The translations under genes were made by a program, and so were the position numbers. Shown in pieces: positions 1 through 41,318 of a stretch of DNA of 42,850 bases (positions within the stretch are counted from its first letter, which is position 1; the number at the start of each line of letters is the position of its first letter). The stretch is taken from UHGV virus genome UHGV-0182515; one strand, 5' to 3'. The DNA comes from a virus. The notes under the pieces are model-generated. The model did no database searches. It saw only the letters and a list, made by a program, of their open reading frames with translations, and had not been told where the DNA came from.

Positions 1-552
1 TATAACATTTTTGATCAACAACTCTTTCCTGTCTTTTATGCAGGTTTATTCGAATCCCACGATGTAGGAACGCGCCTGTATGGTTATCTCAACTCATTCC
101 AGGTGGTACTCGAAGCGCTGTGCATGGCGATTATTCCTTTCTTTGTGAATCGGGTAGGGCCAAAAAATGCATTACTTATCGGTGTTGTGATTATGGCGTT
201 GCGTATCCTTTCCTGCGCGCTATTCGTTAACCCCTGGATTATTTCATTAGTGAAGCTGTTACATGCCATTGAGGTTCCACTTTGTGTCATATCCGTCTTC
301 AAATACAGCGTGGCAAATTTTGATAAGCGCCTGTCGTCGACGATCTTTCTGATTGGTTTTCAAATTGCCAGTTCGTTGGGGATTGTGCTGCTTTCAACGC
401 CGACTGGGATACTCTTTGACCACGCAGGCTACCAGACGGTTTTTTTCGCAATTTCGGGTATTGTCTGCCTGATGTTGCTATTTGGCATTTTCTTCCTGAG
501 TAAAAAACGTGAGCAAATAGTGATGGAAACGCCAGTACCTTCAGCAATATAA
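1..552 (+). CDS. LacY-family sugar:H+ symporter, C-terminal part (5' end lies outside the window); possibly a CscB-type sucrose permease
   Basis: Frame is open from base 1 to the stop at 550-552. The translation is hydrophobic with TM-like segments and aligns with the C-terminal half of LacY-type permeases (GTRLYGY..NRVGPKNALL..FKYSV). The CscB assignment is an inference from the argW-adjacent position. Confidence 0.6.
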   Translation, partial: YNIFDQQLFPVFYAGLFESHDVGTRLYGYLNSFQVVLEALCMAIIPFFVNRVGPKNALLIGVVIMALRILSCALFVNPWIISLVKLLHAIEVPLCVISVFKYSVANFDKRLSSTIFLIGFQIASSLGIVLLSTPTGILFDHAGYQTVFFAISGIVCLMLLFGIFFLSKKREQIVMETPVPSAI

Positions 553-991
553 ACGTAAACTTTTTCCGGTTGTTGTCGATAGCTCTATATCCCTCAACCG
601 GAAAATAATAATACCAAAATGCTTAGCCCTGCTAATAATCGCCTAATCCAAACGCCTCATTCATGTTCTGGTACAGTCGCTCAAATGTACTCCGGATACA
701 CGGCTCGCTGATTTCCAGGGCATTGTCGTAATTCAGCGACCTGTCCCGTGTATCACGGGCCTGCGAATTCATCAAGGAAAGCATTGTGGAGTGAAGTATC
801 AAGTCACGCCATATTTCGCGATCAGGATTGTGTGTGATGGTTACATCGCCCAGCCCAGGGCTGTTTAGTCATCAGCGTTTTCTGACCGTGTTGAGATTTC
901 AACCTGTTGCAGGAAAAATGAGTAGATAGGGCAAATGTGCTGCCAAACTTATCTTTTACGGGGTGAAGGTAGATATCGTTTGAAGGGTATC

Positions 992-1006
992 TGGTGTCCC
1001 CTGCAG
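992..1006. repeat. attR core candidate: 15-bp direct repeat tggtgtcccctgcag identical to the 3' terminal 15 nt of argW
   Basis: Exact 15-bp match to 41244-41258, read directly from the sequence. Lies 73 bp beyond the stop of the excisionase gene. Confidence 0.6.
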
Positions 1007-1079
1007 ACATCTACTTGACGCGGCAGGGGATTGATTAGAATGGTGTTTTTTAGATGTGAGAAATATTTTACCCGCTATT

Positions 1080-1280
1080 TTACCCATTGGCGCGGCTTAA
1101 GAGCTTATTTTTGAATTCACAATGGTCACGATATAACCATCTTGCTCGCCCGTGGATAACTTTGGCTTTTGGCAGGTCGCCGGACTTAATCCGGTCGTAG
1201 ATGAAGGTTTTACCAAAGCCAGTATCGGCCATGATGAATTTCAAATCAACCAGTGAATCAGGCTGTAGTTCGTGTTGCAT
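1080..1280 (-). CDS. torI: Excisionase / recombination directionality factor, TorI/AlpA-like (66 aa)
   Basis: 66-aa protein MQHELQPDSLVDLKFIMADTGFGKTFIYDRIKSGDLPKAKVIHGRARWLYRDHCEFKNKLLSRANG, recognised as TorI/AlpA family; sits at the prophage end opposite the integrase. Confidence 0.75.
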   Translation of the reverse strand: MQHELQPDSLVDLKFIMADTGFGKTFIYDRIKSGDLPKAKVIHGRARWLYRDHCEFKNKLLSRANG

Positions 1281-1299
1281 GAGTGCTATCTCCGAATAG

Positions 1300-1315
1300 G
1301 GAATCGAACCTGCAA
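1300..1315. repeat. Second argW-derived 16-bp segment ggaatcgaacctgcaa (T-arm region of the tRNA), internal to the prophage left arm
   Basis: Exact 16-bp match to 41257-41272, which is the part of argW immediately adjacent to the 15-bp core. Confidence 0.6.
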
Positions 1316-1322
1316 ATCAGGT

Positions 1323-1345
1323 AATAAAAAACCGCATTGATGCGG
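1323..1345 (-). terminator. Rho-independent terminator candidate (minus strand)
   Basis: Inverted repeat ccgca/tgcgg with a 4-nt loop; on the minus strand it is followed by a T-run (complement of aataaaaaa). Confidence 0.4.
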
Positions 1346-1404
1346 CGATGGTAGGTCTGGATATCTTGAGAAATGAACAGGCCTCATCGAGTGTGAGGCT
1401 GTGG

Positions 1405-1749
1405 TTAATCCTTGCGTAACTCGCTAATTCTTCTGTAAGTCTCTGGTGCTTTGTTTCCGTGTATCTTCATTTCAGACTTCAACAGAGCAACGAGGGAATC
1501 CCATTCGTTGAGAATGCCTTTGAATGCCGGAACACGCTTTGCAACCTTGTCGAATGAATCTCTGACTTCTGGAATCTGCTCAACAAGTGCAACGCATCGT
1601 CGGAAATCTGCTGCGTCATGTGGAGCGCCGAAGTGATGACCATAGATATTCTTTTTCAGTCCACATGCGATTGAGGCAAGAGTTGCGCTACTGATGCCAA
1701 CATCGCCAGTCGTTTGCCATTTCAAAATCTTCATAGCCAAATCTGACAT
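1405..1749 (-). CDS. Hypothetical phage early protein
   Basis: ORF with GGAGA Shine-Dalgarno 6 nt upstream of the ATG at 1749; last gene of the leftward early operon. Confidence 0.5.
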   Translation of the reverse strand: MSDLAMKILKWQTTGDVGISSATLASIACGLKKNIYGHHFGAPHDAADFRRCVALVEQIPEVRDSFDKVAKRVPAFKGILNEWDSLVALLKSEMKIHGNKAPETYRRISELRKD

Positions 1750-1761
1750 TTCTTGTCTCCA

Positions 1762-1784
1762 ATAAAAAACCGCCATCAGGCGGC
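1762..1784 (-). terminator. Rho-independent terminator candidate inside the pL operon
   Basis: Stem ccgcc/ggcgg with loop, followed on the minus strand by TTTTTT. Confidence 0.4.
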
Positions 1785-1826
1785 TTGGTGTTCTTTCAGT
1801 TCTTCAATTCGAATATTGGTTACGTC

Positions 1827-2126
1827 TTATTCGATGCGCACTCCTGGTATTTCGCCTTTTGATATTGCGAAGTCATAAATTTGCGCAGCACTATACCCAT
1901 CTCGCATCCATGAATCTAATGCGCGAATAGCCTCGCTACGCTTTTTATCTTCTCTCTCATTTTTGATATCAACGAGGACATCAACGCAATTAAGGCAAAT
2001 GTGGATTTTGTCCTTACATTCGATCATGGCGGCTTTACCATGATTTCCGCCACACAGTGAGCATAAATCTTCAGGGTCTGGCTGGTATTTCTGTAACGTT
2101 AGATGGTTGAATGTTGAACAGGCCAT
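1827..2126 (-). CDS. Hypothetical Cys-rich (zinc-ribbon-like) early protein
   Basis: CSLCGG...C..C..C Cys cluster in the translation; GGAG located 6 nt upstream of the third in-frame ATG. Confidence 0.45.
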   Translation of the reverse strand: MACSTFNHLTLQKYQPDPEDLCSLCGGNHGKAAMIECKDKIHICLNCVDVLVDIKNEREDKKRSEAIRALDSWMRDGYSAAQIYDFAISKGEIPGVRIE

Positions 2127-2197
2127 AATCATCTCCATAAAACAAAACCCGCCGTAGCGAGTTCAGATAAAAGAAATCCCCGCGAGTTCGAGGATTG

Positions 2198-2482
2198 TTA
2201 TTCATTGCCGATATTCACCTTTATCGCGAACACCTTTACCGGTTTATCGCCGAAGTGGGGATGTGTGATTGTCTTGATTTCATATCCGTCATACGGGACG
2301 TCAATTCTGCGGCTGGAATCGTCGCGCTTCGGATATCCCTTTGTGATAATCAGGCGGTCATACTTACGGTTAACGAGGCGCTTATTCCAGTAGTCATTAC
2401 ACAGGCGATACTCTTCCGTTTTCTCCCCGCGAATCATGGCATCGAAGTATTCACCTTTAACGGCAAGTTGCAGGTTAGCCAT
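2198..2482 (-). CDS. ASCH-domain (PUA-like) protein
   Basis: Contains GEKTEEYR, matching the ASCH GxKxxExR signature. Start ATG overlaps the upstream stop (translational coupling). Confidence 0.5.
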   Translation of the reverse strand: MANLQLAVKGEYFDAMIRGEKTEEYRLCNDYWNKRLVNRKYDRLIITKGYPKRDDSSRRIDVPYDGYEIKTITHPHFGDKPVKVFAIKVNIGNE

Positions 2483-2742
2483 TACCTCACCTCCAGTCTC
2501 CATACCGCCTGACCAATCCGGCTGGCATGGGTATCTTTGGATACTGTTCCGTCTTTAGCCAGCTCCATAAGAATTTTGCGCAAATCTGCCGAACGCCATT
2601 CTTCATCAGGAAATTCCTTCTCCATTGCCAACCGCAGATTCCAGGTTGCCATCCTGAATGGATATTCCCCGCCGAGAGCTTTATCTTGCAGGGCAGCCCG
2701 GGAACGCATCACCTGCAAAACCTTCTCTTTTACATCCATCAT
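2482..2742 (-). CDS. Hypothetical phage early protein
   Basis: ORF coupled by ATGA overlap to the upstream DUF551 gene. Confidence 0.4.
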   Translation of the reverse strand: MMDVKEKVLQVMRSRAALQDKALGGEYPFRMATWNLRLAMEKEFPDEEWRSADLRKILMELAKDGTVSKDTHASRIGQAVWRLEVR

Positions 2743-3566
2743 TTTGCCTCCTGCGGCGGTTCTGGTAGCGGCATCCAGTGTGACGGTTTCCACGACGCAC
2801 CAGGAATTATCCAACCATCATTAGCGTCAGGATGCCCCGGTATGTAAGTCGCCCATTTCATTCGCCAGTCACCTTTCCTATCAAACTCCTTGGCAACAAG
2901 AACAGCTGTTTTGCTATCCGGCATTCGCTCACTACAGCTTATCCAACCATCCGGAGTTACCGGATAGTTGACAGCCAGTCTGCGCAAAACAGCCTTAACA
3001 CCCTCAATACGGTCATCATCACAATTTTCCAGCGTATCTATGCGGTCGAGCATGATGATGGCGTTATCAATATCAGGATTGCCAGTCCACTCATTGCCGC
3101 GTACTGGTTGATTCTCGGCTTTACCCAGTCTGTCGTCGCTGCATGAACGCCCTTCCAGCCAGGCCAATGCTTGTCGCATGAAATACGCAATATGTTTGCC
3201 GTGGTAATCGTCTTCATCTATGTGAAAAGCGATACTGCGAATGTATTCAATTGCATTTTCAATAGCCTCCAACGCTATCGGCGCTGGCGGCACAGCGAAT
3301 AGATATCCGCCAAAATCAGGAAGCTCTCCAATGGCCTGTACGAACTTTTGTTTGCCTACGTCAATTCCTAATGGGTAGTGAGCTATAATCTTTGCCACTG
3401 GCTCTGCTTCCAGCGATGCCAGCGTAATTTCAGCCAGCTTGAGGTGAATAACCGCCGCATCATAAGCGCCTGGGACTCTTTCCACCGCAACGCGAAGAAC
3501 CTCAATATTCTTCTTAGCCTGCTCAATCAACTGCTCTTTGGTGAACTCTTTGGTAATCGTGATCAT
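2739..3566 (-). CDS. DUF551-domain protein (275 aa)
   Basis: C-terminal W/P-rich segment ...SHWMPLPEPP typical of DUF551 proteins found in lambdoid early regions. Confidence 0.5.
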   Translation of the reverse strand: MITITKEFTKEQLIEQAKKNIEVLRVAVERVPGAYDAAVIHLKLAEITLASLEAEPVAKIIAHYPLGIDVGKQKFVQAIGELPDFGGYLFAVPPAPIALEAIENAIEYIRSIAFHIDEDDYHGKHIAYFMRQALAWLEGRSCSDDRLGKAENQPVRGNEWTGNPDIDNAIIMLDRIDTLENCDDDRIEGVKAVLRRLAVNYPVTPDGWISCSERMPDSKTAVLVAKEFDRKGDWRMKWATYIPGHPDANDGWIIPGASWKPSHWMPLPEPPQEAK

Positions 3567-4078
3567 GCCGCGTTTCCTTCTTTCTTATTAACAATTACAC
3601 CGTCATATATTTCATTAAGGTGCCCTCTCAACTCCATGCGCCTTAATGCAGATAACATGTAATCGCATTCAACCTGCTTATTTCCAGTAAATGGCTTATC
3701 GTCAGGATTACCCCAACAGCAATTACCCTTGGGCCACCCATGTACTTTCCGTACTCTTCCGTTAACAACGTGAAGTAATCCCCAGCCGGGAGGTAAATCC
3801 TCAATTGAAATAATTCCCGGCTCACTAATAAAGAATCGCCAGTCGCCCATTCCAAAAGACGGATTTTTACGGAAACGCTTTTTTCTATCTGCCAACAAGT
3901 CAGCACGAGAACACTTCGCCTCTATCAGGCATGATGCTGAATTTCTGAATCCCATAGCATCTGGCTGTTCTCCGGTACTGGTTACAGCTATAAAGCGGTC
4001 ATGAAAATAAACCTTGAACCCGTTGCGCTTAAGGAACTTGTACGCAATCTGACAGAGTTCGCTGTGTGTTAACGCCAT
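3563..4078 (-). CDS. Putative PD-(D/E)xK-fold nuclease-like protein
   Basis: Motif ..QPDAMGF..(13 aa)..LIEAK fits a PD-x(n)-ExK core; the family assignment is an inference from that motif only. Confidence 0.35.
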   Translation of the reverse strand: MALTHSELCQIAYKFLKRNGFKVYFHDRFIAVTSTGEQPDAMGFRNSASCLIEAKCSRADLLADRKKRFRKNPSFGMGDWRFFISEPGIISIEDLPPGWGLLHVVNGRVRKVHGWPKGNCCWGNPDDKPFTGNKQVECDYMLSALRRMELRGHLNEIYDGVIVNKKEGNAA

Positions 4079-4079
4079 A

Positions 4080-4487
4080 TCACTCTCCTTTGATGCGAAT
4101 GCCAGTAGCGCGGATTGCATCGATGACTTCAGAAACTTTGTATGCCATTACCGTTTGGTAATCATCGTGAAAATCTGTTCGATGAAGCATGCTGCTACGT
4201 TCCGGGAGCGATATTTCCCGCGCTTCCAGTTCTGCAATGCGCTTTTTTGCTGCTTCCAGTTCATCCAGTAATTCCAGCACGGTAGCCGGATTAGCCTTGG
4301 CAACAAAATCCCGGACTGGCTTACAATCAATCTCCGCAATGGGTTGATACGATGTGTAGCCATGCTGTCTTGTATAACTACCGTGACGAATAACGAAAAA
4401 ATCACCATTTATTTTTTTAGCCTGCCACTTATCTTCACCGGCTTTCTCTGCCGCTTCACGCAGTGCCTGATAGTCAATCTTGCTCAC
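4080..4487 (-). CDS. Hypothetical coiled-coil protein; probable GTG start
   Basis: AAGGAGG Shine-Dalgarno lies 6 nt upstream of a GTG at 4487-4485; the longer ATG-initiated ORF (to 4679) would overlap the Lar-like gene by about 200 bp. Confidence 0.45.
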   Translation of the reverse strand: MSKIDYQALREAAEKAGEDKWQAKKINGDFFVIRHGSYTRQHGYTSYQPIAEIDCKPVRDFVAKANPATVLELLDELEAAKKRIAELEAREISLPERSSMLHRTDFHDDYQTVMAYKVSEVIDAIRATGIRIKGE

Positions 4488-4707
4488 TGGTTGCCTCCTT
4501 TGCTCGCTGATTCCACTCTGCTCTAACCTCTGAATAAAAAATCGCGCAGTCATTTCCAGGCGCTGCATATTTGCTACCAGATTGAGCGCGACACGTACCG
4601 CATCGAACGAAATAGAATCGACCGCCAGAGCCATATTCAGGGTGATCTGCTTCGCTGGCAACGTGCGCTGCACCGCCACAGAATGGACATGGTAGTAGGT
4701 TGCTCAT
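4474..4707 (-). CDS. Lar-family restriction alleviation protein
   Basis: [12 protein letters not shown]....CGTC zinc-ribbon pattern characteristic of Lar-like proteins of lambdoid prophages. Confidence 0.55.
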   Translation of the reverse strand: MSNLLPCPFCGGAAHVASEADHPEYGSGGRFYFVRCGTCRAQSGSKYAAPGNDCAIFYSEVRAEWNQRAKEATSEQD

Positions 4708-5141
4708 GAATGCACTCCCTTGTGAAGCTGTTCCGCACAATGCAGCAGGGCGTCAGTCGCCTCTTTCACCGTAACGCAGTCGCCATCGTCCAGCCCGGAC
4801 ACCGACGCGTGCTTAACGAACGCCGCGCAAAGGTCATCAAACGCCTTAGCCCGGACTTCAGTCAGGAAAGCATCGGTGGCCGGGGTTTTGCAGGACATTT
4901 GAATTGCCTTCTCTGTGTATAAAACACCCGTTCGATTGGCGGTATACATGATGGTGTTTACAGCATCTTGATGTGCTGATTTCACAGCCTCAACTTCAGC
5001 AGCCAGCGCCGCGCACTTGGCCTCCGCTTCAGCAAATTTACGCACCAGATATTCAGCGTTTGTTTCGTTAACCTTTAAATCTCGTGGGATGCATTTACCT
5101 TTCAGAAAACCATCCATCTCAATTAGTGACATTTGTTTCAT
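4704..5141 (-). CDS. Hypothetical phage early protein
   Basis: ORF in the early operon; ATGA overlap with the upstream small gene. Confidence 0.4.
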
Positions 5142-5302
5142 TTTTTCCCACTCCGCCACATCGCATTCAGATATTTGTTTTGATTCACTGATGGAAAAGA
5201 ATTTCTCTTAAGCAATTCCTCTCTCGATGGCATTGGCTTTACGCGTTGGCGAATAATCATTTCTGCCGGAAGAATGCCGGGATTGTATGCAAGTCCTCTC
5301 AT
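5138..5302 (-). CDS. Small hypothetical protein (about 54 aa)
   Basis: Short ORF filling the gap; the start was chosen to avoid overlap with the upstream gene. Confidence 0.25.
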
Positions 5303-5312
5303 GGTAAATTCC

Positions 5313-5606
5313 TCAGTCATTACTGATAGCGCCATAGCGTGAGCGGTAATTACGCAGGCGCGGGTCAATTTCAGGGAAGTGGGTATATGTGGCTTTGCGG
5401 AATGGTCGGATTGATGTCTGGTAAATTCGCTCGCGTTCTTCTTTCTCTGCAAGCCATATACAATGGCGAAATTCCTTTTCCTCTTTCGTTTCCTGCGGTA
5501 GCGACATTATCCGGTCGTAGTTTTTCCTGAATTTATCCAGCACCTCCGATACGGAATTGCCGGAACAGCGGCGCGCGTCATCCGCACCATACAGAGGCGC
5601 TGGCAT
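5313..5606 (-). CDS. Hypothetical phage early protein (97 aa)
   Basis: ORF in the early operon; no recognisable domain. Confidence 0.4.
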
Positions 5607-5622
5607 GGTTTTCTCCTGTTGA

Positions 5623-6171
5623 TTATTTAGCTAACTTTTTCCAGATCGCTGAAACGTATTTGGCTTGGTGAATGGCATCATCAAGAGCGTTGTGGCGAGT
5701 TCCTTTGAATGGCATATCTCGCTTAGGGTCGAATCCTATTACCTTTCCAAGCTCGACGATTGTTCTTACGTCGCGGTCATTCCACCACTGCCACGGAACT
5801 GGCTGCCCTGTCAGCGAATAACTGTTTCGGAGAATAACGCAGTCAAATGATGCTCCATTCCCCCAAACCTGAACGAATTTGTGGTTAGCGTTCTTTATGA
5901 TGAATTCAGATAACCATGAAAGAGCCGTTGAAAGCTCCTGAGTGTTGCTGGTTAGCGATTTTCTGGCTTCTTCACTCTGTTCCATCCACCATAAAATCGT
6001 TGAAGCGTCAGGACGCGCTCGATATCGCATTGATGACTCAAGCGAGATATTTACCGAGAACTCTTCTCCTGTTTCTCCGGTATTCGGGTCAAAGAATACC
6101 GCCCCAATAGAAATAACTGGCGCGTATGGCCCGTTGCCTATTGTTTCAAGGTCAACCATCAAGTGATTCAT
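5623..6171 (-). CDS. DEDDh-family 3'-5' exonuclease
   Basis: MVDLETIG (Asp/Glu motif I) and H.ALDDA (motif III with His) are present in the translation. Confidence 0.65.
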   Translation of the reverse strand: MNHLMVDLETIGNGPYAPVISIGAVFFDPNTGETGEEFSVNISLESSMRYRARPDASTILWWMEQSEEARKSLTSNTQELSTALSWLSEFIIKNANHKFVQVWGNGASFDCVILRNSYSLTGQPVPWQWWNDRDVRTIVELGKVIGFDPKRDMPFKGTRHNALDDAIHQAKYVSAIWKKLAK

Positions 6172-6179
6172 GTAAGTCC

Positions 6180-6695
6180 TTAAATTGCGTGAATAGCGTG
6201 ACGAGGGAAAGGGAGAGTTACTGGTGCAAAGGGGATATCGTCGTCAAAATCCATAGGTGGTTCGCTGTGATTTCCCTGCTGCTGAGGTTGCTGTCTTTGT
6301 TGCTGACCATTATTTCGCTGAGGTGAAGACTGTTCATTGCCTCCTTGCTTGCCACCAAGCATTTGCATGGTTCCACCAACTCCCACGATGACTTCGGTAG
6401 TGAACCGATCCTGTCCGCTTTGATCCTGCCATTTTCTTGTCCGCAATTTGCCTTCAAGATAAACCTCAGAGCCTTTTCGCAGATATTCGCTGGCAATTTC
6501 TGCCAGTTTCCCGCTCATTACCACGCGGTGCCACTCCGTCTGCTCCTTTTGCTCTCCAGTTTTCTTATCACGCCATTGTTCTGACGTAGCAACGGTAAGG
6601 TTTGCAAATGCCGTTCCTGATGGTGAATATCTGATTTCTGGATCATGCCCAAGGCGACCAATAATGATCACCTTATTTACGCCTCTGCTTGCCAT
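6180..6695 (-). CDS. ssb: Single-stranded DNA-binding protein (phage SSB) with a C-terminal extension
   Basis: N-terminal OB-fold region [16 protein letters not shown].., Gly/Gln-rich linker, and the acidic MDFDDDIPF motif followed by 15 additional residues before the stop. Confidence 0.85.
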
Positions 6696-7403
6696 TTATG
6701 CCGCCTGTTTTAGTTCGTTAACTCTGATGTTCATTACCTGAACGCATTTAGCCTGCGCCTCCTCGTTGCCAGCCATTAATTGCCAGTCACGCTGATAACG
6801 CTCGATGAGTTTTTTCTTGTCAGTTTCTGTCGCTGCATAATCGCTGAAGTCTTTCAGGATTTGTTCGCAGTCAACCGATGGAGATTTCTGGTTGGTATTT
6901 TCTGGTGATGGTTTGTTATCTGATGCTGGGATTGCCCATCCCGGAAGTGATGGAGGGAGCCAGTAAAATCCTGTTCCATCCTTCAGTTTTGCCCTGTGCC
7001 ACCCCTGCTTTTTATCGAGAGATGTTTGTGCGAAACCTTCCTCAAGGTTATACAGATACCTACCGATTCCCCACTGAACGGCAGCGCGCTTCATTGCACC
7101 GGAACGACCACCTTTGACGGCTTCTACCTGCGTGTTTTCAGCAGCATCCCATTTGGTTACCCATTCGGAATCAATCTTTATTGATATGCCGCATTCAACG
7201 CCGCCGTTGTTGGGAATATCGCGGTATTCATTGCGCCATCCTGCTTTGCCGCAAACATCGTCCAGGCGTTTCATGATTGCCCTGTTCGTGACATAAGCCA
7301 GCACCATAGCCCACACCTTTCCATCGCGTGTTTTACCGCTTTGCTGTATTCGCCATTCGATATCTTCAGGGCTGAATGGCTCATCGAATTTGTTCAAATC
7401 CAT
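6696..7403 (-). CDS. Rad52-like single-strand annealing protein
   Basis: Sits where a recombinase is expected next to ssb; the N-terminal region shows the Rad52/Sak-like pattern (..AYVTNRAIMKRLDDVCGKAGWRNEY..). Confidence 0.5.
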   Translation of the reverse strand: MDLNKFDEPFSPEDIEWRIQQSGKTRDGKVWAMVLAYVTNRAIMKRLDDVCGKAGWRNEYRDIPNNGGVECGISIKIDSEWVTKWDAAENTQVEAVKGGRSGAMKRAAVQWGIGRYLYNLEEGFAQTSLDKKQGWHRAKLKDGTGFYWLPPSLPGWAIPASDNKPSPENTNQKSPSVDCEQILKDFSDYAATETDKKKLIERYQRDWQLMAGNEEAQAKCVQVMNIRVNELKQAA

Positions 7404-7502
7404 AATTCACCTCAGAATGGACACGGCCCAAGGAAATAACGCTGATTTAATACTTCGACTCGGGACAAATTAAGGCATACCCGCATTCCTTCGCGGTCGC
7501 CA

Positions 7503-7661
7503 TTATGGCGATACCAGAGAGCTTTCTGCGTGTACATGCGCCTCTGTAACTTGCTCTCCTTCACTGTGGTTGCAAGTGACATGAATATCTCCTTCGTTAC
7601 CGATTAATTCTTTCATCTGACGAATGAATTCTTCGTCTGAACAGTTATCTGTAAAACTCAT
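7503..7661 (-). CDS. Small hypothetical protein in the kil position
   Basis: ATGA overlap with the cIII stop; Cys- and His-containing acidic peptide. Confidence 0.35.
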   Translation of the reverse strand: MSFTDNCSDEEFIRQMKELIGNEGDIHVTCNHSEGEQVTEAHVHAESSLVSP

Positions 7662-7828
7662 GGACGGCCTTGTTGTTTCAAAATATCCCAAATCTTTTCG
7701 AGCAAACTTTTCATTCTTGGTTGTTTAAAGTCTGCTCCGGTTAAAATATTTTTTCGTGAATGCTGTACCGATAAAATCGGGTTGAAAGGGCGAACCGATG
7801 CCGCCCCTGCAATAGCGAACTGTTGCAT
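7658..7828 (-). CDS. cIII: CIII-like FtsH inhibitor
   Basis: MQQFAIAG...LLEKIWDILKQQGRP resembles lambda CIII (MQYAIAG...LIDILNQPG); AAGGAG lies 6 nt upstream of the ATG. Confidence 0.7.
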   Translation of the reverse strand: MQQFAIAGAASVRPFNPILSVQHSRKNILTGADFKQPRMKSLLEKIWDILKQQGRP

Positions 7829-8013
7829 AGGATGCTCCTTCTGTTTGATTGCATAACGAAAACGCCTCGAGTGAAGCGTTATTGGTATGCATATAAAAAG
7901 GCCCTCACACTGGAGGGCAAAGAAGATTTCCAATAATCAGAACAAGTCGGCTCCTGTTTAGTTACGAGCGACATTGCTCCGTGTATTCACTCGTTGGAAT
8001 GAATACACAGTGC

Positions 8014-8202
8014 TTATTCGTCATGCATTTCAGGTAATTCTTCGTATTCGACGCCCCATACGAGTTTACACCAAGTGACTCGCTCATATCTTTTACAAAA
8101 ATCAGACCACATAACTTGTGTTCCATCATGGTTTGTTATTACTTCTGTAATATCACCAACACTAACAAAACTGGTATTAGAAGCAGTTATTTTTACTTTC
8201 AT
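8014..8202 (-). CDS. Hypothetical protein
   Basis: ORF between cIII and N; no recognisable domain. Confidence 0.35.
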   Translation of the reverse strand: MKVKITASNTSFVSVGDITEVITNHDGTQVMWSDFCKRYERVTWCKLVWGVEYEELPEMHDE

Positions 8203-8498
8203 TACTTATCCCCAAGAGCTTTTCTTATTGCTGCGAGACCTTTATTAACAGCTCCATACCATTCTGGATATGTTGTCGTTGTTCTATTTTTGGTTTGCTT
8301 AAGTAATAACTGAAGTGCTTCGAGAAGGTCAGGTGCTGCCGCTATTAGATTGGCATCTTCAATGCATTGAACTTCCTCACAGATTGCAATATACGAACGC
8401 CAGCCTGCGCCATTTTCAAGTGAGTCTGCCTGGATGATTTTAATCTCATCGCCATCCATCATTATTTCCCACTTACCTTCAGTACCTTTAAATTCCAT
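8202..8498 (-). CDS. Hypothetical protein
   Basis: ORF between cIII and N; no recognisable domain. Confidence 0.4.
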   Translation of the reverse strand: MEFKGTEGKWEIMMDGDEIKIIQADSLENGAGWRSYIAICEEVQCIEDANLIAAAPDLLEALQLLLKQTKNRTTTTYPEWYGAVNKGLAAIRKALGDK

Positions 8499-8550
8499 GT
8501 TAGCCTCTGTTGTTTATGCCAAAAATAAAGGCCGACTATGCGGCCATCAC

Positions 8551-8739
8551 TTAAATTTCCTTCCATCCCCAATCAAGCGTTTCAAATGCTACATCACGCA
8601 TGTTTTCGTCTTTTTCGTCCTGATCCATTTCATTCCACTCATTCTCGGATAAGCCAAGATCATCGAGTGTTACAACTGTCTTTTTGCAAGAATGAATGTT
8701 TGCGCCGGAATCCAACCAAATTTCAAATTTACGTTCCAT
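8551..8739 (-). CDS. Hypothetical acidic protein in the ral position
   Basis: First gene downstream of N; 62 aa; no similarity to Ral recognised. Confidence 0.35.
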   Translation of the reverse strand: MERKFEIWLDSGANIHSCKKTVVTLDDLGLSENEWNEMDQDEKDENMRDVAFETLDWGWKEI

Positions 8740-8747
8740 ATATCACC

Positions 8748-9074
8748 TCAAATAAGTGGTTTGCTGCCTAATTTCATTTTCTGGCGACCAACACAAGTCA
8801 CACCCATTTCACTGCGTGGCTTGCTGTACCATGTGCGCTGATTCTTGCGCTCAATACGTTGCAGGTTGCTTTCAATCTGTTCGTGGTATTCAGCCAGCAC
8901 CGTAAGGTCTATCGGATTCAGTGCGCTTTCTACTCGTGATTTCGGTTTGCGATTCAGCGAGAGAATAGGGCGGTTAACTGGTTTTGCGTTTACCCCAACC
9001 AACAGGGGATTTGCTGCTTTCCATTGAGCCTGTTTCTCTGCGCGACGTTCGCGGCGGCGTGTTTGTGCATCCAT
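8748..9074 (-). CDS. N: Antitermination protein N
   Basis: MDAQTRRRERRAEKQAQWKAANPLLVGV..; the Arg-rich N-terminal motif and most of the sequence match lambda N. Confidence 0.9.
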   Translation of the reverse strand: MDAQTRRRERRAEKQAQWKAANPLLVGVNAKPVNRPILSLNRKPKSRVESALNPIDLTVLAEYHEQIESNLQRIERKNQRTWYSKPRSEMGVTCVGRQKMKLGSKPLI

Positions 9075-9257
9075 CTGGATTCTCCTGTCAGTTAGCTTTG
9101 GTGGTGTGGTGGCTGGAGTCGAACCAGCTTCCATCGGTGCGCTGCCGATTGGGTTACGCGCATCCTGCGGTTAGTTGTCTAGAATCTTCACCGCAAAACT
9201 ATTCCCTAGCTCGCCGTTGAGCTTCACCACACCCCAAAGCTTTCTGCTTTGAATGCC

Positions 9258-9288
9258 GCCCTTCTTCAGGGCTTAATTTTTAAGAGCC
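9258..9288 (-). promoter_or_regulatory. nutL (boxB GCCCTGAAGAAGGGC, boxA GGCTCTTAA)
   Basis: Minus-strand sequence GGCTCTTAAAAATTAAGCCCTGAAGAAGGGC; boxB hairpin identical to lambda nutL, boxA differs at one base. Confidence 0.85.
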
Positions 9289-9327
9289 TCACCTTCATGG
9301 TGGTTAGTGCGTCCTGCTGATGGCTAA

Positions 9328-9356
9328 ATAGTACGATTTGTACTTTATTGAGTCAA
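9328..9356 (-). promoter_or_regulatory. pL promoter (-35 TTGACT, 17-bp spacer, -10 TACTAT) with overlapping operator AGTACGATTTGTACT (9330-9344)
   Basis: Hexamers read on the minus strand; a perfect inverted repeat AGTAC-N5-GTACT overlaps the -10. Confidence 0.6.
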
Positions 9357-9420
9357 TACAAAATGTTCTAAATATAATTAGTTTTTTATAACGCTTTGTA
9401 TTTAATGGGTTTATATTTTG

Positions 9421-9450
9421 GAAAAAGAAAACCCGACGCTAAGGTCGGGT
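9421..9450 (-). terminator. Rho-independent terminator downstream of cI
   Basis: Stem acccgac/gtcgggt with a 6-nt loop, followed on the minus strand by TTTCTTTTT. Confidence 0.6.
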
Positions 9451-9481
9451 TATTGTTGTGTATTTTAGAGTTGTGAGGCTG

Positions 9482-10141
9482 TTAACTAAATGTCTCTTCA
9501 GGCCACTGGCTGGCGATAACTTTCCCTACTACGGAACAGCTATCATTGCATGGAATCATTGGATATTGCGGGTTTAGTGGCTGTAGGAACACCTGACCGC
9601 TATCCCTGATCAGTTTCTTGAAGGTAAACTCGTCACCACCAAGTCTGGCTATGCAGAAATCACCTGGCTCAACAGCCTGCTCAGGGTCAACGAGAATTAA
9701 CATCCCGTCAGGAAAGCTTGGCTTGGATCCTGTTGGCGCGGTCATGGAATTACCTTCAACTTCAAGCCAGAACGCACAATCACTGGCTTTTTTGGTTGTG
9801 CTGACCCATCTCTCCGCATCACCTTTGGTAAAGGTTCTAAGCTCAGGCGAGAACATCCCGGCCTGAACATGAGAAAAAACAGGGTACTCATATTGTTTTT
9901 TTAACGGGGGCAGAGAGTATTCGCCAACAGGTGAAAATGTACCGTCGTGGTTGAATGAGACGTTATCAATACCAAGGTATTTAAACACCACACCAATCTC
10001 GTCAAGAGATGGATGACGAGATCCGCGCAACCAGTGACCAATTCCACCCTGCGTCATACCAAGCTCTTCAGCTAACCTCTCTTGAGTTATGCCGAGCTCT
10101 TTCATTCTGGATCTAGCCAGTTCATACCATTTCATTTTCAT
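9482..10141 (-). CDS. cI: CI-type prophage repressor (heterologous HTH N-domain joined to a lambda-like S24 C-domain)
   Basis: C-terminal part [18 protein letters not shown]...EVEGNSM...FKKL... is near-identical to lambda CI (catalytic Ser and Lys present); N-terminal 90 aa are an unrelated HTH domain. Confidence 0.85.
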
Positions 10142-41081: not shown

Positions 41082-41243
41082 GGGTAAAAATCCGGTGGGT
41101 AAAATTATTTTATCCACTTTTTACCCGTCATGGAGTGCGGCTGTCAACGATCTGACGTGAACCATTACGAACTGTAAATCTACGGAAGGCTTGATATTCA
41201 GGGGATTTTGCGGACTGCTACGGATGGGAGCGAACTGATAAAT

Positions 41244-41258
41244 GGTGTCCCCTGCAGG
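41244..41258. repeat. attL core candidate (15 bp, identical to 992-1006), the 3' end of argW
   Basis: Exact direct repeat read from the sequence. Confidence 0.6.
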
Positions 41259-41318
41259 AATCGAACCTGCAATTAGCCCTTAGGAGGGGCTCGTTATATC
41301 CATTTAACTAAGAGGACA
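41244..41318 (-). tRNA. argW: tRNA-Arg (anticodon CCU)
   Basis: Reverse complement GTCCTCTTAGTTAAATGGATATAACGAGCCCCTCCTAAGGGCTAATTGCAGGTTCGATTCCTGCAGGGGACACCA folds as a cloverleaf with 7-bp acceptor stem, T-loop GGTTCGATTCC, anticodon loop CUCCUAA and CCA end. Confidence 0.85.

Follow-up and report, generated by a model that had tools for sequence, protein, structure and literature searches.

Judged from its sequence, the interval 1405–5606 of the 42,850-nt stretch of DNA analyzed here (the window) belongs to the early-left operon of an E. coli prophage of the P22-like type, where it forms the accessory, highly shuffled end. The explanation that accounts for it best, and that we consider very probably correct, is that it represents the promoter-distal accessory part of an N-antiterminated early-left (pL) operon in a P22-like prophage at argW, with a gene set assembled by module shuffling. 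In particular, the prophage carries P22-type capsid, portal and tailspike genes together with arc and ant, has intS beside a tRNA-Arg gene, and possesses the full P22-type set of structural, lysis, replication and immunity genes. (Note that RefSeq already holds the sequence of the window, with labels much like ours.) On one side of the accessory genes lie recombination genes specifying a Rad52-type recombinase (6696–7403), an SSB (6180–6695) and an Rv2179c-like 3′–5′ exonuclease (5623–6171), each above its Pfam cut-off; on the other side lies torI (1080–1280), the IntS/TorI-type excisionase gene at the end of the operon (so annotated in RefSeq for the identical sequence), as well as a 15-nt copy of the att core (992–1006). 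A consensus scan revealed a pL-like promoter (9356–9328), which is followed by a boxA-like sequence (9288–9277) and a lambda-type boxB, GCCCTGAAGAAGGGC (9272–9258), that together make up nutL, and by N (8748–9074; PF11438, N36, 87.9 bits); all of these features apart from the att core are on the minus strand. The region had been assigned to the early-left operon, 3′ of the recombination genes, and since the pL-like promoter, nutL, N and the recombination genes (5623–7403) are all placed upstream, this assignment is correct.

Ten genes had been counted in the interval by the first-pass annotation, whereas we find eleven, the one overlooked being a gene for a 54-aa DUF2737 protein (5138–5302). 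The limits themselves hold, with the last gene stopping at 1405 and abc2 starting at 5606, and all long ORFs between them are on the minus strand. In order of transcription the genes are abc2 (g11), the DUF2737 gene (g10), g9, g8, g7, g6, g5, g4, g3, g2 and g1. On the evidence of sequence comparison these are real conserved phage genes rather than chance ORFs: all eleven are intact, and each matches a full-length PHROG or Pfam family or has the length of its closest homologues. Every gene included in a PHROG scan found a match (E = 5.5e-13 to 2.6e-121), and the DUF2737 gene, which that scan left out, has a Pfam DUF2737 match instead (E = 2.6e-31). Starts were corrected for eight genes, the first bases (minus strand) being 5141 for g9, 4707 for g8, 4487 for g7 (GTG), 4078 for g6, 2742 for g4, 2482 for g3, 2126 for g2, and 1749 instead of 1776 for g1; the later start is favored for g1 because the ATG at 1776 sits within a terminator hairpin.

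The genes had also been described as tightly packed and mostly translationally coupled. This holds for abc2 through the ASCH gene (2198–5606), a block whose junctions measure +10, −4, −4, −14, +1, −4, −4 and −1 nt, but not for g2 (1827–2126) and g1 (1405–1749), which are set off by gaps of 71 and 77 nt, each with terminator-like hairpins. The consensus scan placed two overlapping predicted hairpins in the g3/g2 gap (2196–2175 and 2164–2145, together 2145–2196), one in the g2/g1 gap (1767–1786; AAGCCGCC-TGAT-GGCGGTTT and a T run), and two in the gap between g1 and torI (1399–1381 and 1346–1331, together 1331–1399), all on the minus strand. Given these flanking hairpins, the expression of g2 and g1 might differ from that of the coupled block. 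The two might even be moron-like cassettes, expressed while the prophage is at rest and serving the lysogen (in exclusion or defense, for example), rather than early lytic genes. Lysogenic-conversion genes are often found near the attachment-site end of a prophage, which g2 and g1 adjoin; each is 71–124 nt from its neighbors with terminator-like hairpins on both sides, and both assort independently of the remaining region. We nevertheless think such a role unlikely. No σ70-like promoter was detected before g2 or g1 in the consensus scan, PADLOC returned no match for them, and both share the strand of the operon and lie downstream of it, where N-antiterminated transcripts would cover them. Furthermore, g1 has a 97% identical copy in the 2.7-kb HK022 record X51962.1, which we take to be the int–xis region; if it is, this placement is the usual one for early-left genes.

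For the antiterminated early-left operon that we favor, operon anatomy together with the biology of lambda and P22 suggests the following course of events. Transcription from pL would begin upon infection or induction, and N acting at nutL would take RNA polymerase past the internal terminator-like hairpins up to torI. The abc2-to-ASCH block would be translated as one coupled unit, and the accessory products would then work separately on the DNA and RNA machinery of the host. The gene set itself was probably built by module shuffling, as lambdoid, Stx and P1-like phages swapped genes and gene halves, with breakpoints often falling inside Ead/Ea22-type and DUF551-type genes.

The region is a new combination of known parts. 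At least 80% of positions 1000–6200 is present in 2 of 5426 complete E. coli genomes, and some part of it in 4212; all of the genes occur together in just one of the 47 viral contigs that have a close Lar homologue. In those 47 contigs abc2, the DUF2737 gene, a relative of g9 and the Lar gene are often together, and g7 to g1 assort freely. Ea22 and DUF551 have been described as portable modules (PMC10834534), and regions beside abc2 are recognized accessory regions rich in counter-defense genes (bioRxiv 10.1101/2023.04.06.535777). The general view taken earlier, that of a variable accessory region like those in which counter-defense and host-takeover genes are found, fits the latter study and the mosaicism measured here; its counter-defense part draws on a single well-studied homologue (Abc2) and on analogy. 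As in our region, the accessory regions that Silas et al. studied (bioRxiv 10.1101/2023.04.06.535777; PMC12373910) are hypervariable clusters between conserved genes, beside abc2, in enterobacterial phages, and they are enriched in counter-defense genes and abortive-infection triggers; six peptide tags (from g1, g2, g3, g4, g6 and g8) were not found in the accessible supplementary files of these two reports, and as far as those files show, the six genes do not belong to the set assayed there.

The “ea” region of the P22 early-left operon (abc2, orf56, eaE, orf45, eaF, eaD, eaI, eaA, eaG, eaC and xis) has the same position and strand, from the recombination/abc genes to xis, and P22 is of the same phage type as our prophage. 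The P22 counterparts to our genes run in the same order from abc2 to xis (Abc2, 93% identity; orf56, 75%; EaE, 34%; the DUF551 part of EaA, 37%). However, at E ≤ 1e-3 a counterpart in P22 is lacking for 7 of the 11 genes (those for the Lar-like protein, g7, the MmcB-like nuclease, g4, the ASCH protein, the zinc finger and g1). Unlike P22, the prophage lacks abc1, has a Rad52-type recombinase, its own SSB and a 3′–5′ exonuclease instead of Erf/Arf, and has an IntS/TorI integration module with int at its far end. The exo–xis region of lambda corresponds in position to ours; in lambda and Stx phages (PMC10834534) it likewise comprises early-left genes that separate the recombination genes from xis, with an Ead/Ea22-signature protein, a portable C-terminal DUF551 and a mosaic make-up, but in our prophage the Ead/Ea22 core (g7, 135 aa) and DUF551 (g5) belong to two different proteins, whose genes flank a nuclease gene. 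A pro-lysogenic effect has been shown for lambda Ea22 (PMC10834534).

The first gene of the coupled block, g11 (5313–5606, minus strand, like all genes below), specifies the 97-aa anti-RecBCD protein 2, Abc2 (PF11043 over its full length, 209.6 bits against a cut-off of 25; phrog_656, “abc2 anti-RecBCD”). P22 Abc2 has an established role in redirecting RecBCD, and by analogy g11 likely does the same, given its identity to the P22 protein, the “anti-RecBCD” annotation of the latter and the family name. The DUF2737 gene (PF10930, 107.7 bits against a cut-off of 25) starts 10 nt after the abc2 stop and is the equivalent of P22 orf56, which is also placed just after abc2. The EaE-like g9 (4704–5141; 145 aa) matches phrog_614 (E = 7e-51) and resembles P22 EaE over 89 aa; a Pfam search found no family for it. 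In other phages its C-terminal part is fused behind an Ead/Ea22 N-terminus, and in phrog_368 profile positions 111–238 correspond to g9 residues 41–150 and positions 1–89 to the N-terminus of g7. (Abc2, DUF2737 and Ead/Ea22 had gone unrecognized in the first-pass annotation.)

The Lar-family assignment is borne out for g8 (4474–4707), a 77-aa zinc-ribbon protein (Cys7, 10, 36 and 39) that scores 38.1 bits with PF14354 against a cut-off of 28.6, although with the NCBIfam model TIGR03655 it reaches 29.4 bits, below the cut-off of 39.6. Its amino-acid sequence is kept down to 61% identity, and stops build up in the other two frames. Like Lar/RalR of Rac (PF14354, TIGR03655), g8 is a small zinc-ribbon protein whose gene belongs to a lambdoid early operon and lies just 3′ of the recombination genes, and by analogy it is probably a modulator of type I restriction or a DNA-binding protein. 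However, Rac Lar, the family prototype, has been described as a DNase toxin, its current annotation being endodeoxyribonuclease toxin RalR, paired with the sRNA antitoxin RalA (PMC4041452); with the N-terminal CPFCG...C..C zinc ribbon common to both proteins, g8 might itself be a RalR-type DNase toxin, possibly with an unrecognized sRNA antitoxin, instead of a restriction-alleviation factor. We consider this rather unlikely, in that the 64-aa Rac protein shares only 26% identity with g8 over 42 residues, the window has no counterpart of the ralA/rcbA neighbor of RalR, positions 1–10000 gave no Rfam family match, and g8 is translationally coupled within a long operon, unlike a stand-alone type I toxin locus.

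The Ead/Ea22-like g7 (4080–4487; 135 aa; PF13935, 67 bits against a cut-off of 27) begins with a GTG preceded by an AAGGAGG Shine-Dalgarno sequence. Coding is not conserved in a 64-codon 5′ extension of its ORF (to 4679), and phrog_1667 spans residues 65–199 of the long ORF, which is the entire 135-aa protein. The next gene, g6 (3563–4078), specifies a 171-aa MmcB/DUF1052-like protein with a PD-(D/E)xK nuclease fold. The PD..ExK motif picked out earlier stands up well: E37, D40 and E53-x-K55 (window positions 3914–3970) are invariant, AlphaFold models the protein with confidence, and fold matches are to nucleases, the best being DUF1052/MmcB-like, with viral proteins named MmcB-like among the significant Foldseek matches. 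Because these catalytic residues are all invariant, g6 is probably an active metal-dependent nuclease. It shares the motif D...ExK-x-SRxD-xxAD-xK with the DUF1052/MmcB-like nucleases (PF06319; structure 3dnx; Caulobacter MmcB), but the g6 family has additional conserved GMGDWRF and GWGLL motifs and a C-terminal helical extension, and PF06319 matched none of 46 family members even at E ≤ 10. Moreover, the family is phage-borne, whereas DUF1052 is by description mostly alpha-proteobacterial and MmcB is described as SOS-regulated and involved in crosslink repair. The gene is found in 928 of 5426 E. coli genomes, with 248 plasmid places among them, and is 98% identical in phage P7 and Shigella phage Ss-VASD.

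RefSeq labels g6 as frameshifted, which is an artefact, the ORF being unbroken and aligning without gaps to 45 homologues of ~160–190 aa. PGAP has a frameshifted pseudogene at 3900–4078 and leaves 3567–3899 empty, as might be expected if the region were decaying, non-functional prophage DNA; with eleven intact ORFs, g6 included, in a prophage with the complete P22-type gene set, we regard decay as extremely improbable.

The order Ead-like gene, g6, DUF551-type gene recurs in P7 (upf88.3, upf89.0 and upf89.5) and in Shigella phage Ss-VASD, and raises the idea that g7, g6 and g5 act as a co-operating unit, be it a nuclease and a partner that regulates or targets it, or a toxin and its neutralizer. 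The junctions of g6 are +1 and −4 nt. In a set of 80 viral contigs whose g6 has at least 97% identity to ours, no fewer than 72 have an upstream gene terminating in ...KGE, and of the 76 that are informative, 65 have a downstream gene beginning with M(I/T)T(I/F)T. However, conservation is limited to the ends that abut g6, and the bodies of these genes vary widely: the downstream protein, 44 to 468 aa long with a g5-like N-terminus, has DUF551 in 43 of the 80 contigs, and a g7-like protein lies upstream in 35. Recombination breakpoints would leave such end-only conservation, which is not what co-adapted partners should show. In addition, the 80 contigs hold near-identical g6 copies and are thus non-independent observations, neither Ead nor DUF551 appears among the names given to the annotated neighbors of distant g6 relatives in Vibrio and Vi1-like virulent phages, and PADLOC found no known defense or toxin module. 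A working trio is therefore, in our estimation, quite improbable.

The product of g5 (2739–3566) is a modular protein of 275 aa, with an N-terminal MITITKE module, a variable middle and, at residues 207–272 (window 2751–2948), the C-terminal DUF551 domain seen in the first pass (PF04448, 77 bits against a cut-off of 22), which resembles the C-terminus of P22 EaA; its N- and C-terminal parts match separate PHROG families. The 86-aa product of g4 (2482–2742) matches phrog_2814 over its full length (E = 1.9e-52), and searches of Pfam, NCBIfam, PADLOC and PDB gave nothing informative. The 94-aa product of g3 (2198–2482) had been taken for an ASCH protein, and both the GxKxxExR motif (residues 19–26, window 2405–2428) and an ASCH fold are present, though every sequence cut-off is missed: none of 60 relatives scanned reached that of PF04266 (best E = 0.001), a domain that includes the E. 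coli N4-acetylcytidine amidohydrolase YqfB and a Zymomonas ASCH protein and next to which g3 is small.

The Cys-rich zinc protein recognized at the outset is g2 (99 aa), for which a C4 zinc finger of the ClpX type is predicted at residues 22–54 (window 1965–2063), in which C22, C25, C44 and C47 are invariant across 22 homologues. ClpX is its top match in Pfam, NCBIfam and PDB, every score being below cut-off (best E = 0.0013–0.016): PF06689 gives weak matches to 20 of the 22 members (best E = 0.0013), and a PDB profile search returned ClpX alone (best E = 0.016). With the N-terminal zinc-binding domain of ClpX (PF06689; 1ovx, 2ds5-8), g2 shares CxxC-x18-CxxC in an I-C-x-x-C-V-D-L context and aligns without gaps over 36–37 residues, all four Cys matched, but it has no AAA+ module, and the 40 residues at its C-terminus vary and are unrelated. 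Its family is a small one of 36 clusters, and where a source is named it belongs to Enterobacteriaceae. No functional assignment was obtained for three of the eleven genes. The last gene before torI, g1, encodes a 114-aa protein that has no Pfam or PDB match, belongs with phrog_1229 (E = 1.8e-51) and has relatives in Vibrio, Salmonella and Haemophilus phages.

Eleven genes, all on the minus strand, occupy the region between 1405 and 5606; we designate them g11 (abc2, the first transcribed) to g1 (the last before torI). The first-pass annotation had placed ten tightly packed genes here, in the early-left operon downstream of the recombination genes. The placement was borne out: upstream, on the same strand, lie a pL-like promoter (9356–9328; TTGACT-17-TACTAT, from a consensus scan), a boxA-like sequence (GGCTCTTAAAAA, 9288–9277), a boxB hairpin (GCCCTGAAGAAGGGC, 9272–9258), the gene for N (8748–9074; Pfam N36, 87.9 bits) and genes assigned by Pfam to a Rad52-type recombinase (6696–7403), an SSB (6180–6695) and an Rv2179c-like 3'-5' exonuclease (5623–6171). 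Several small genes separate N from the recombinase gene. A minus-strand ORF of 56 aa at 7658–7828 (MQQFAIAG...SLLEKIWDILKQ), annotated as hypothetical, resembles lambda CIII and is a candidate CIII-type gene of the lambdoid phages.

As for the packing, the count had to be raised to eleven, and translational coupling held from g11 to g3, where successive junctions measure +10, -4, -4, -14, +1, -4, -4 and -1 nt. The last two genes follow gaps of 71 nt (before g2) and 77 nt (before g1), both of which contain terminator-like hairpins (2196–2175 and 2164–2145 before g2; 1786–1767 before g1); two more are found in the interval between g1 and torI (1399–1381 and 1346–1331), all on the minus strand. 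A promoter scan found none for g1 or g2; the region held 5 promoter-like sites, below the 13.4 of shuffled sequence, and the scan thus lends no support to separate expression. The cargo genes would be expressed from pL by N antitermination. (A search of window positions 1–10000 against Rfam at E≤1 found no known small RNA, its sole match being a chance tmRNA fragment.)

Ten of the eleven proteins matched PHROG families, with E values from 5.5e-13 to 2.6e-121, and five proteins passed curated Pfam cut-offs. In particular, g11 (5313–5606, 97 aa) scored 209.6 bits against PF11043 (cut-off 25) over residues 1–97 of 97, and its 93% identity to P22 Abc2, a protein annotated as anti-RecBCD, suggests that it would bind and redirect RecBCD. 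The product of g10 (5138–5302, 54 aa), which lay outside the PHROG scan, matched PF10930 (DUF2737) at 107.7 bits against a cut-off of 25 (E=2.6e-31). That of g7 (4080–4487, 135 aa) matched PF13935 (Ead_Ea22) at 67 bits against 27, over profile positions 1–90 of 139, leaving the C-terminal part of the model unmatched. These three families had been missed in the first-pass annotation; its Lar and DUF551 calls were both correct. The DUF551 protein is g5 (2739–3566, 275 aa), whose residues 207–272 cover positions 1–68 of the 68-position PF04448 profile at 77 bits against 22. The Lar protein is g8 (4474–4707, 77 aa), which scored 38.1 bits against PF14354 (Lar_restr_allev; cut-off 28.6, profile positions 2–58 of 58) and fell below the cut-off of NCBIfam TIGR03655, a stricter model (29.4 versus 39.6 bits). 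The two CxxC pairs of its predicted zinc ribbon (C7, C10, C36 and C39) persist in almost every homologue, to identities as low as 61%, and we regard the family label as sound. With the Lar protein of the K-12 Rac prophage (now RalR), g8 shares only 26% identity over 42 aa, confined to the N-terminal half (pairwise E=7e-5). RalR itself is reported to be a DNase toxin whose antitoxin is an sRNA (PMC4041452). Defence-system models (PADLOC-DB, E≤0.1) gave no match to any of the ten proteins scanned, the set being all but Abc2.

The start of g7 overlaps the Lar gene, and a longer reading of g7 was considered. An ORF of 199 aa at 4080–4679, beginning with GTG, would lengthen g7 by 64 codons (4488–4679) lying over the Lar gene in its +1 frame, and this extension matches phrog_4132 (E=4e-22) and phrog_250. 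Among 37 distinct Lar genes, however, the Lar protein stays conserved while the +1 frame gains one to three extra stops in all homologues of 61–93% identity except that at one locus (L031). We therefore rejected both the extension and dual coding with Lar, and place the start of g7 at GTG 4487, which is preceded by AAGGAGG. Given these stops in diverged homologues, phrog_4132 and phrog_250 probably include mis-called ORFs.

The gene next to g7 is g6. Its relatives begin at the second Met of a longer ORF, which sets the gene at 3563–4078 (171 aa). A search of 5.8 billion proteins returned 286 relatives, mostly of 160–190 aa, in Escherichia, Klebsiella, Cronobacter, Serratia, Morganella and Providencia among others; every named one carries the label "hypothetical" or "uncharacterised", and the only two Pfam entries recorded for them (PF13935 and PF04448) stem from fusions with neighbouring genes. 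In an alignment of 46 sequences 58–98% identical to the query, E37, D40, E53 and K55 are invariant, as are D60, D64, K67, R70, a GMGDWR motif and GWGLL. An AlphaFold model (pLDDT 85.7, pTM 0.81) has the order helix, three strands, helix, strand, with D40 opening strand 2 and E53-x-K55 closing strand 3, an arrangement that fits the alpha-beta-beta-beta-alpha-beta core. Among solved and predicted structures the closest fold is MmcB-like/DUF1052; indeed, a Foldseek comparison with viral models returned "MmcB-like DNA repair protein" at E values from 1.5e-7 to 7e-4. MmcB is a PD-(D/E)XK endonuclease of Caulobacter that is induced by the SOS response and linked to crosslink repair (PMC9578287). At the level of sequence, none of the 46 family members matched PF06319 (DUF1052) at E≤10, the alignment of a family profile with 3dnx was limited to ExK-SRxD-xxAD-xK (E=0.28), and a single-sequence PDB search gave nothing usable. 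Together, the invariant catalytic residues, the model and the fold matches support the PD..ExK motif originally noted in this protein, and g6 is best described as a phage-borne sister of the MmcB/DUF1052 family. Its intact catalytic residues suggest that it would act as a nuclease.

In RefSeq (NZ_CP069451.1, 3602074–3602252) the PGAP annotation confines this gene to its first 59 codons (window 3900–4078), labelled a "frameshifted" pseudogene, and leaves 3567–3899 empty. We reject that call. The 171-aa ORF is intact and full length and aligns, free of gaps, with 45 homologues, so the frameshift is an annotation artefact. (In the protein collection searched, full-length E. coli versions come mostly from non-NCBI gene calls, and NCBI entries are often fragments of 111–144 aa.) The gene is common: of 5426 complete E. 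coli genomes, 928 (17%) carry it at 95–100% nucleotide identity, with 248 places on plasmids, and phage P7 (as Upf89.0), Stx phages and Shigella phages have it at 98% identity. Klebsiella and Vibrio phages hold copies that are more distant, and approximately residues 4–113, the N-terminal two-thirds with the catalytic motif, match Vi1-like virulent phages at 41–47% identity. A common phage gene listed in RefSeq as hypothetical, and here as a pseudogene, can thus be redescribed as an intact gene with an MmcB-like PD-(D/E)xK nuclease fold and all catalytic residues conserved, and could reasonably be included when phage accessory genes are screened for function.

The surroundings of g6 bear on whether it works together with its neighbours. 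The order g7-g6-g5 recurs in P7 (locus L083, 86016–92528), behind the C1 repressor operator Op(hea), and in Ss-VASD (L084), and near-identical copies of g6 (at least 95% nucleotide identity) are found both in lambdoid prophages and on P1-like plasmids. Such recurrence could mean that the three genes form a functional cassette, a reading in which we place low confidence. We also surveyed the flanks of g6 in 80 contigs (L085–L164) whose copies show 97% identity or more. At least 72 of the 80 have an upstream gene ending in ...KGE, and 65 of the 76 informative contigs have a downstream gene that begins with M(I/T)T(I/F)T. The bodies of both flanking genes are highly variable: the downstream protein ranges from 44 to 468 aa, and DUF551 is present in 43 of the 80 contigs. 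We read these conserved ends and variable bodies as recombination breakpoints inside the flanking modular genes. That g6 is an uncharacterised, widely spread phage effector, which overcomes a host barrier or processes phage or host DNA and travels with the abutting ends of Ead/Ea22- and DUF551-type genes, strikes us as a long shot.

A similar mosaic extends over the whole region. At least 80% of window 1000–6200 is present in only 2 of the 5426 E. coli genomes, some part of it in 4212, and no phage record covers more than 49%. Among 47 IMG/VR contigs with a Lar homologue of 61–100% identity, a single one (L005) has all the genes; abc2, the DUF2737 gene, a relative of g9 and Lar often occur together, and g7 to g1 are each present in only 4 to 19 contigs, in many combinations. 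In P22 the early-left order is erf, abc1, abc2, orf56, eaE, orf45, eaF, eaD, eaI, eaA, eaG, eaC, xis, int. The two phages share Abc2 (93%), orf56 (DUF2737; 75%), an EaE-like protein (g9; 34%) and an EaA-type DUF551 domain (g5; 37%), whereas the other seven genes of the window are without counterpart in P22. By this comparison, the region is the "ea region" of another P22-like phage with different cargo.

Modular exchange is also visible within single proteins. The N-terminus of g7 and the C-terminal part of g9 (4704–5141, 145 aa; an EaE-like protein) both match phrog_368, the former at profile positions 1–89 and the latter at 111–238; phrog_60 is matched by g5 at profile positions 116–282 and, weakly, by the N-terminus of g7 at 1–35. 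It follows that g5, g7 and g9 are made of pieces that elsewhere are fused in larger Ea22-type phage proteins. In keeping with this piecewise make-up, Ea22 variants and DUF551 have been described as portable modules (PMC10834534). Outside PHROGs, no informative match was found for g9, g4 (2482–2742, 86 aa) or g1 (1405–1749, 114 aa) in Pfam, NCBIfam and PADLOC, nor, for g1 and g4, in the PDB, where single-sequence searches gave nothing usable. A TPR match of g4 was dismissed as a sum of weak repeat matches. A copy of g1 that is 97% identical is found in the HK022 record X51962.1, and relatives occur in Vibrio, Salmonella and Haemophilus phages.

For g3 (2198–2482, 94 aa), the ASCH identity suggested at first reading is settled by structure and not by sequence profiles. 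The protein scored 14.6–14.8 bits against PF04266, below the gathering score of 21.2, and its relatives matched that model at E≤1 in 17 of 30 close sequences and at E≤0.01 in 8 of 60 distant ones, with a best E value of 0.001 in either set. Profile searches for ASCH with the g3 family in Pfam and the PDB gave nothing significant, even with 60 diverse relatives drawn from a library of 1.8 billion proteins, and a single-sequence PDB search was likewise of no use. The GxKxxExR motif is present (G19-E-K21-T-E-E24-Y-R26); K21 does not vary among the 60 relatives, and conservation at G19, E24 and R26 is at least 90%. The predicted fold of g3 is the ASCH/PUA-like beta-barrel. A small ASCH label with no curated sequence model behind it is thus backed by fold.

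The Cys-rich protein g2 (1827–2126, 99 aa) had been called a zinc ribbon. It belongs to a small family of 36 clusters from Escherichia, Klebsiella and Enterobacter. Four Cys (C22, C25, C44 and C47) are indeed invariant among the homologues, in the arrangement CxxC-x18-CxxC. They lie inside a nearly invariant 40-residue block, YQPDPEDLCSLCGGNxGKAAMIExKDKIHICxxCxDLL, and the C-terminal 40 residues are variable. The ClpX zinc-binding domain ranked first in Pfam, NCBIfam and the PDB; all five PDB matches of the family profile were to ClpX (best E=0.016), and a gap-free alignment with the zinc-binding domain of E. coli ClpX matches all four Cys. Against PF06689, g2 scored 15.6 bits, below the gathering score of 27, and 20 of 22 homologues matched weakly and below cut-off (best E=0.0013); scores short of the cut-off are usual for a model of only 39 residues. 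The term "ClpX-type C4 zinc finger", denoting a resemblance, therefore seems more precise than "zinc ribbon". Likeness to the ClpX finger in particular suggests a testable link to the ClpX network: as a stand-alone protein, g2 might mimic the zinc-binding domain of ClpX and disturb substrate or adaptor delivery to ClpXP, a reading that we rank below that of g6 as an effector.

Accessory regions beside abc2 form the basis for a reading in terms of counter-defence or host takeover (10.1101/2023.04.06.535777), and by analogy with that literature the cargo described here may have such a general role. The original observation is confirmed and its interpretation supported. (Six peptide tags from the region's genes were absent from the supplementary files of two Silas et al. 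papers.) The object is an ordinary accessory region, already in RefSeq with mostly the same family labels, and a new combination of known modules. As a whole it matters little: for a lambdoid or P22-like prophage it is a textbook accessory region, and it opens no long-standing question. What is mildly new is limited to the identity of g6 and g3 at the level of fold and the likeness of g2 to the ClpX zinc-binding domain.

The E. coli FDAARGOS_1256 chromosome (NZ_CP069451.1) matches window 1000–6200 at 100% identity, and E. coli strain Combat2C1 matches it at 99.8%. RefSeq annotates in NZ_CP069451.1 a complete P22-like prophage with P22-family genes for capsid, portal, scaffold, tail needle and tailspike as well as arc and ant, together with lambda-type cII, replication genes, nin genes, Q and lysis genes; intS adjoins tRNA-Arg at one end, and torI lies at the other. 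In the window, the tRNA-Arg(CCU) gene (argW) at 41243–41317 and a 15-nt copy of its 3' end (the att core) at 992–1006 delimit the prophage to approximately 1007–41242 and place the accessory region at the torI end. The tRNA-Arg gene is offset by 333 nt from the position expected under strict colinearity with NZ_CP069451.1, the identity applying to 1000–6200; the window may come from another strain, or there may be an insertion or deletion elsewhere in the prophage.

A second piece of argW, a 16-nt exact copy of its T-arm (GGAATCGAACCTGCAA), lies inside the prophage at 1300–1315, between g1 and torI and just upstream of the latter, 294 nt from the att core copy. The two pieces adjoin each other in argW (compare 41243–41272), as if a duplicated tRNA 3' segment were split in two by torI. 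By our own estimate such a match would be expected by chance approximately 7e-4 times, and the copy may have been left behind when an earlier integration or recombination took place. The prophage adjoins sucrose-utilisation (csc) genes and a truncated dsdX (window 1–1000, RefSeq context); the window begins within an oligosaccharide MFS transporter gene (ORF 103–552), and a 50-aa "hypothetical protein" is annotated at approximately 632–784. Elsewhere in the prophage, a DNA cytosine methyltransferase gene in the nin region and an HNH-motif gene adjoining the tailspike gene (RefSeq record 3590595–3591539 and 3568632–3569090) are further accessory cargo.
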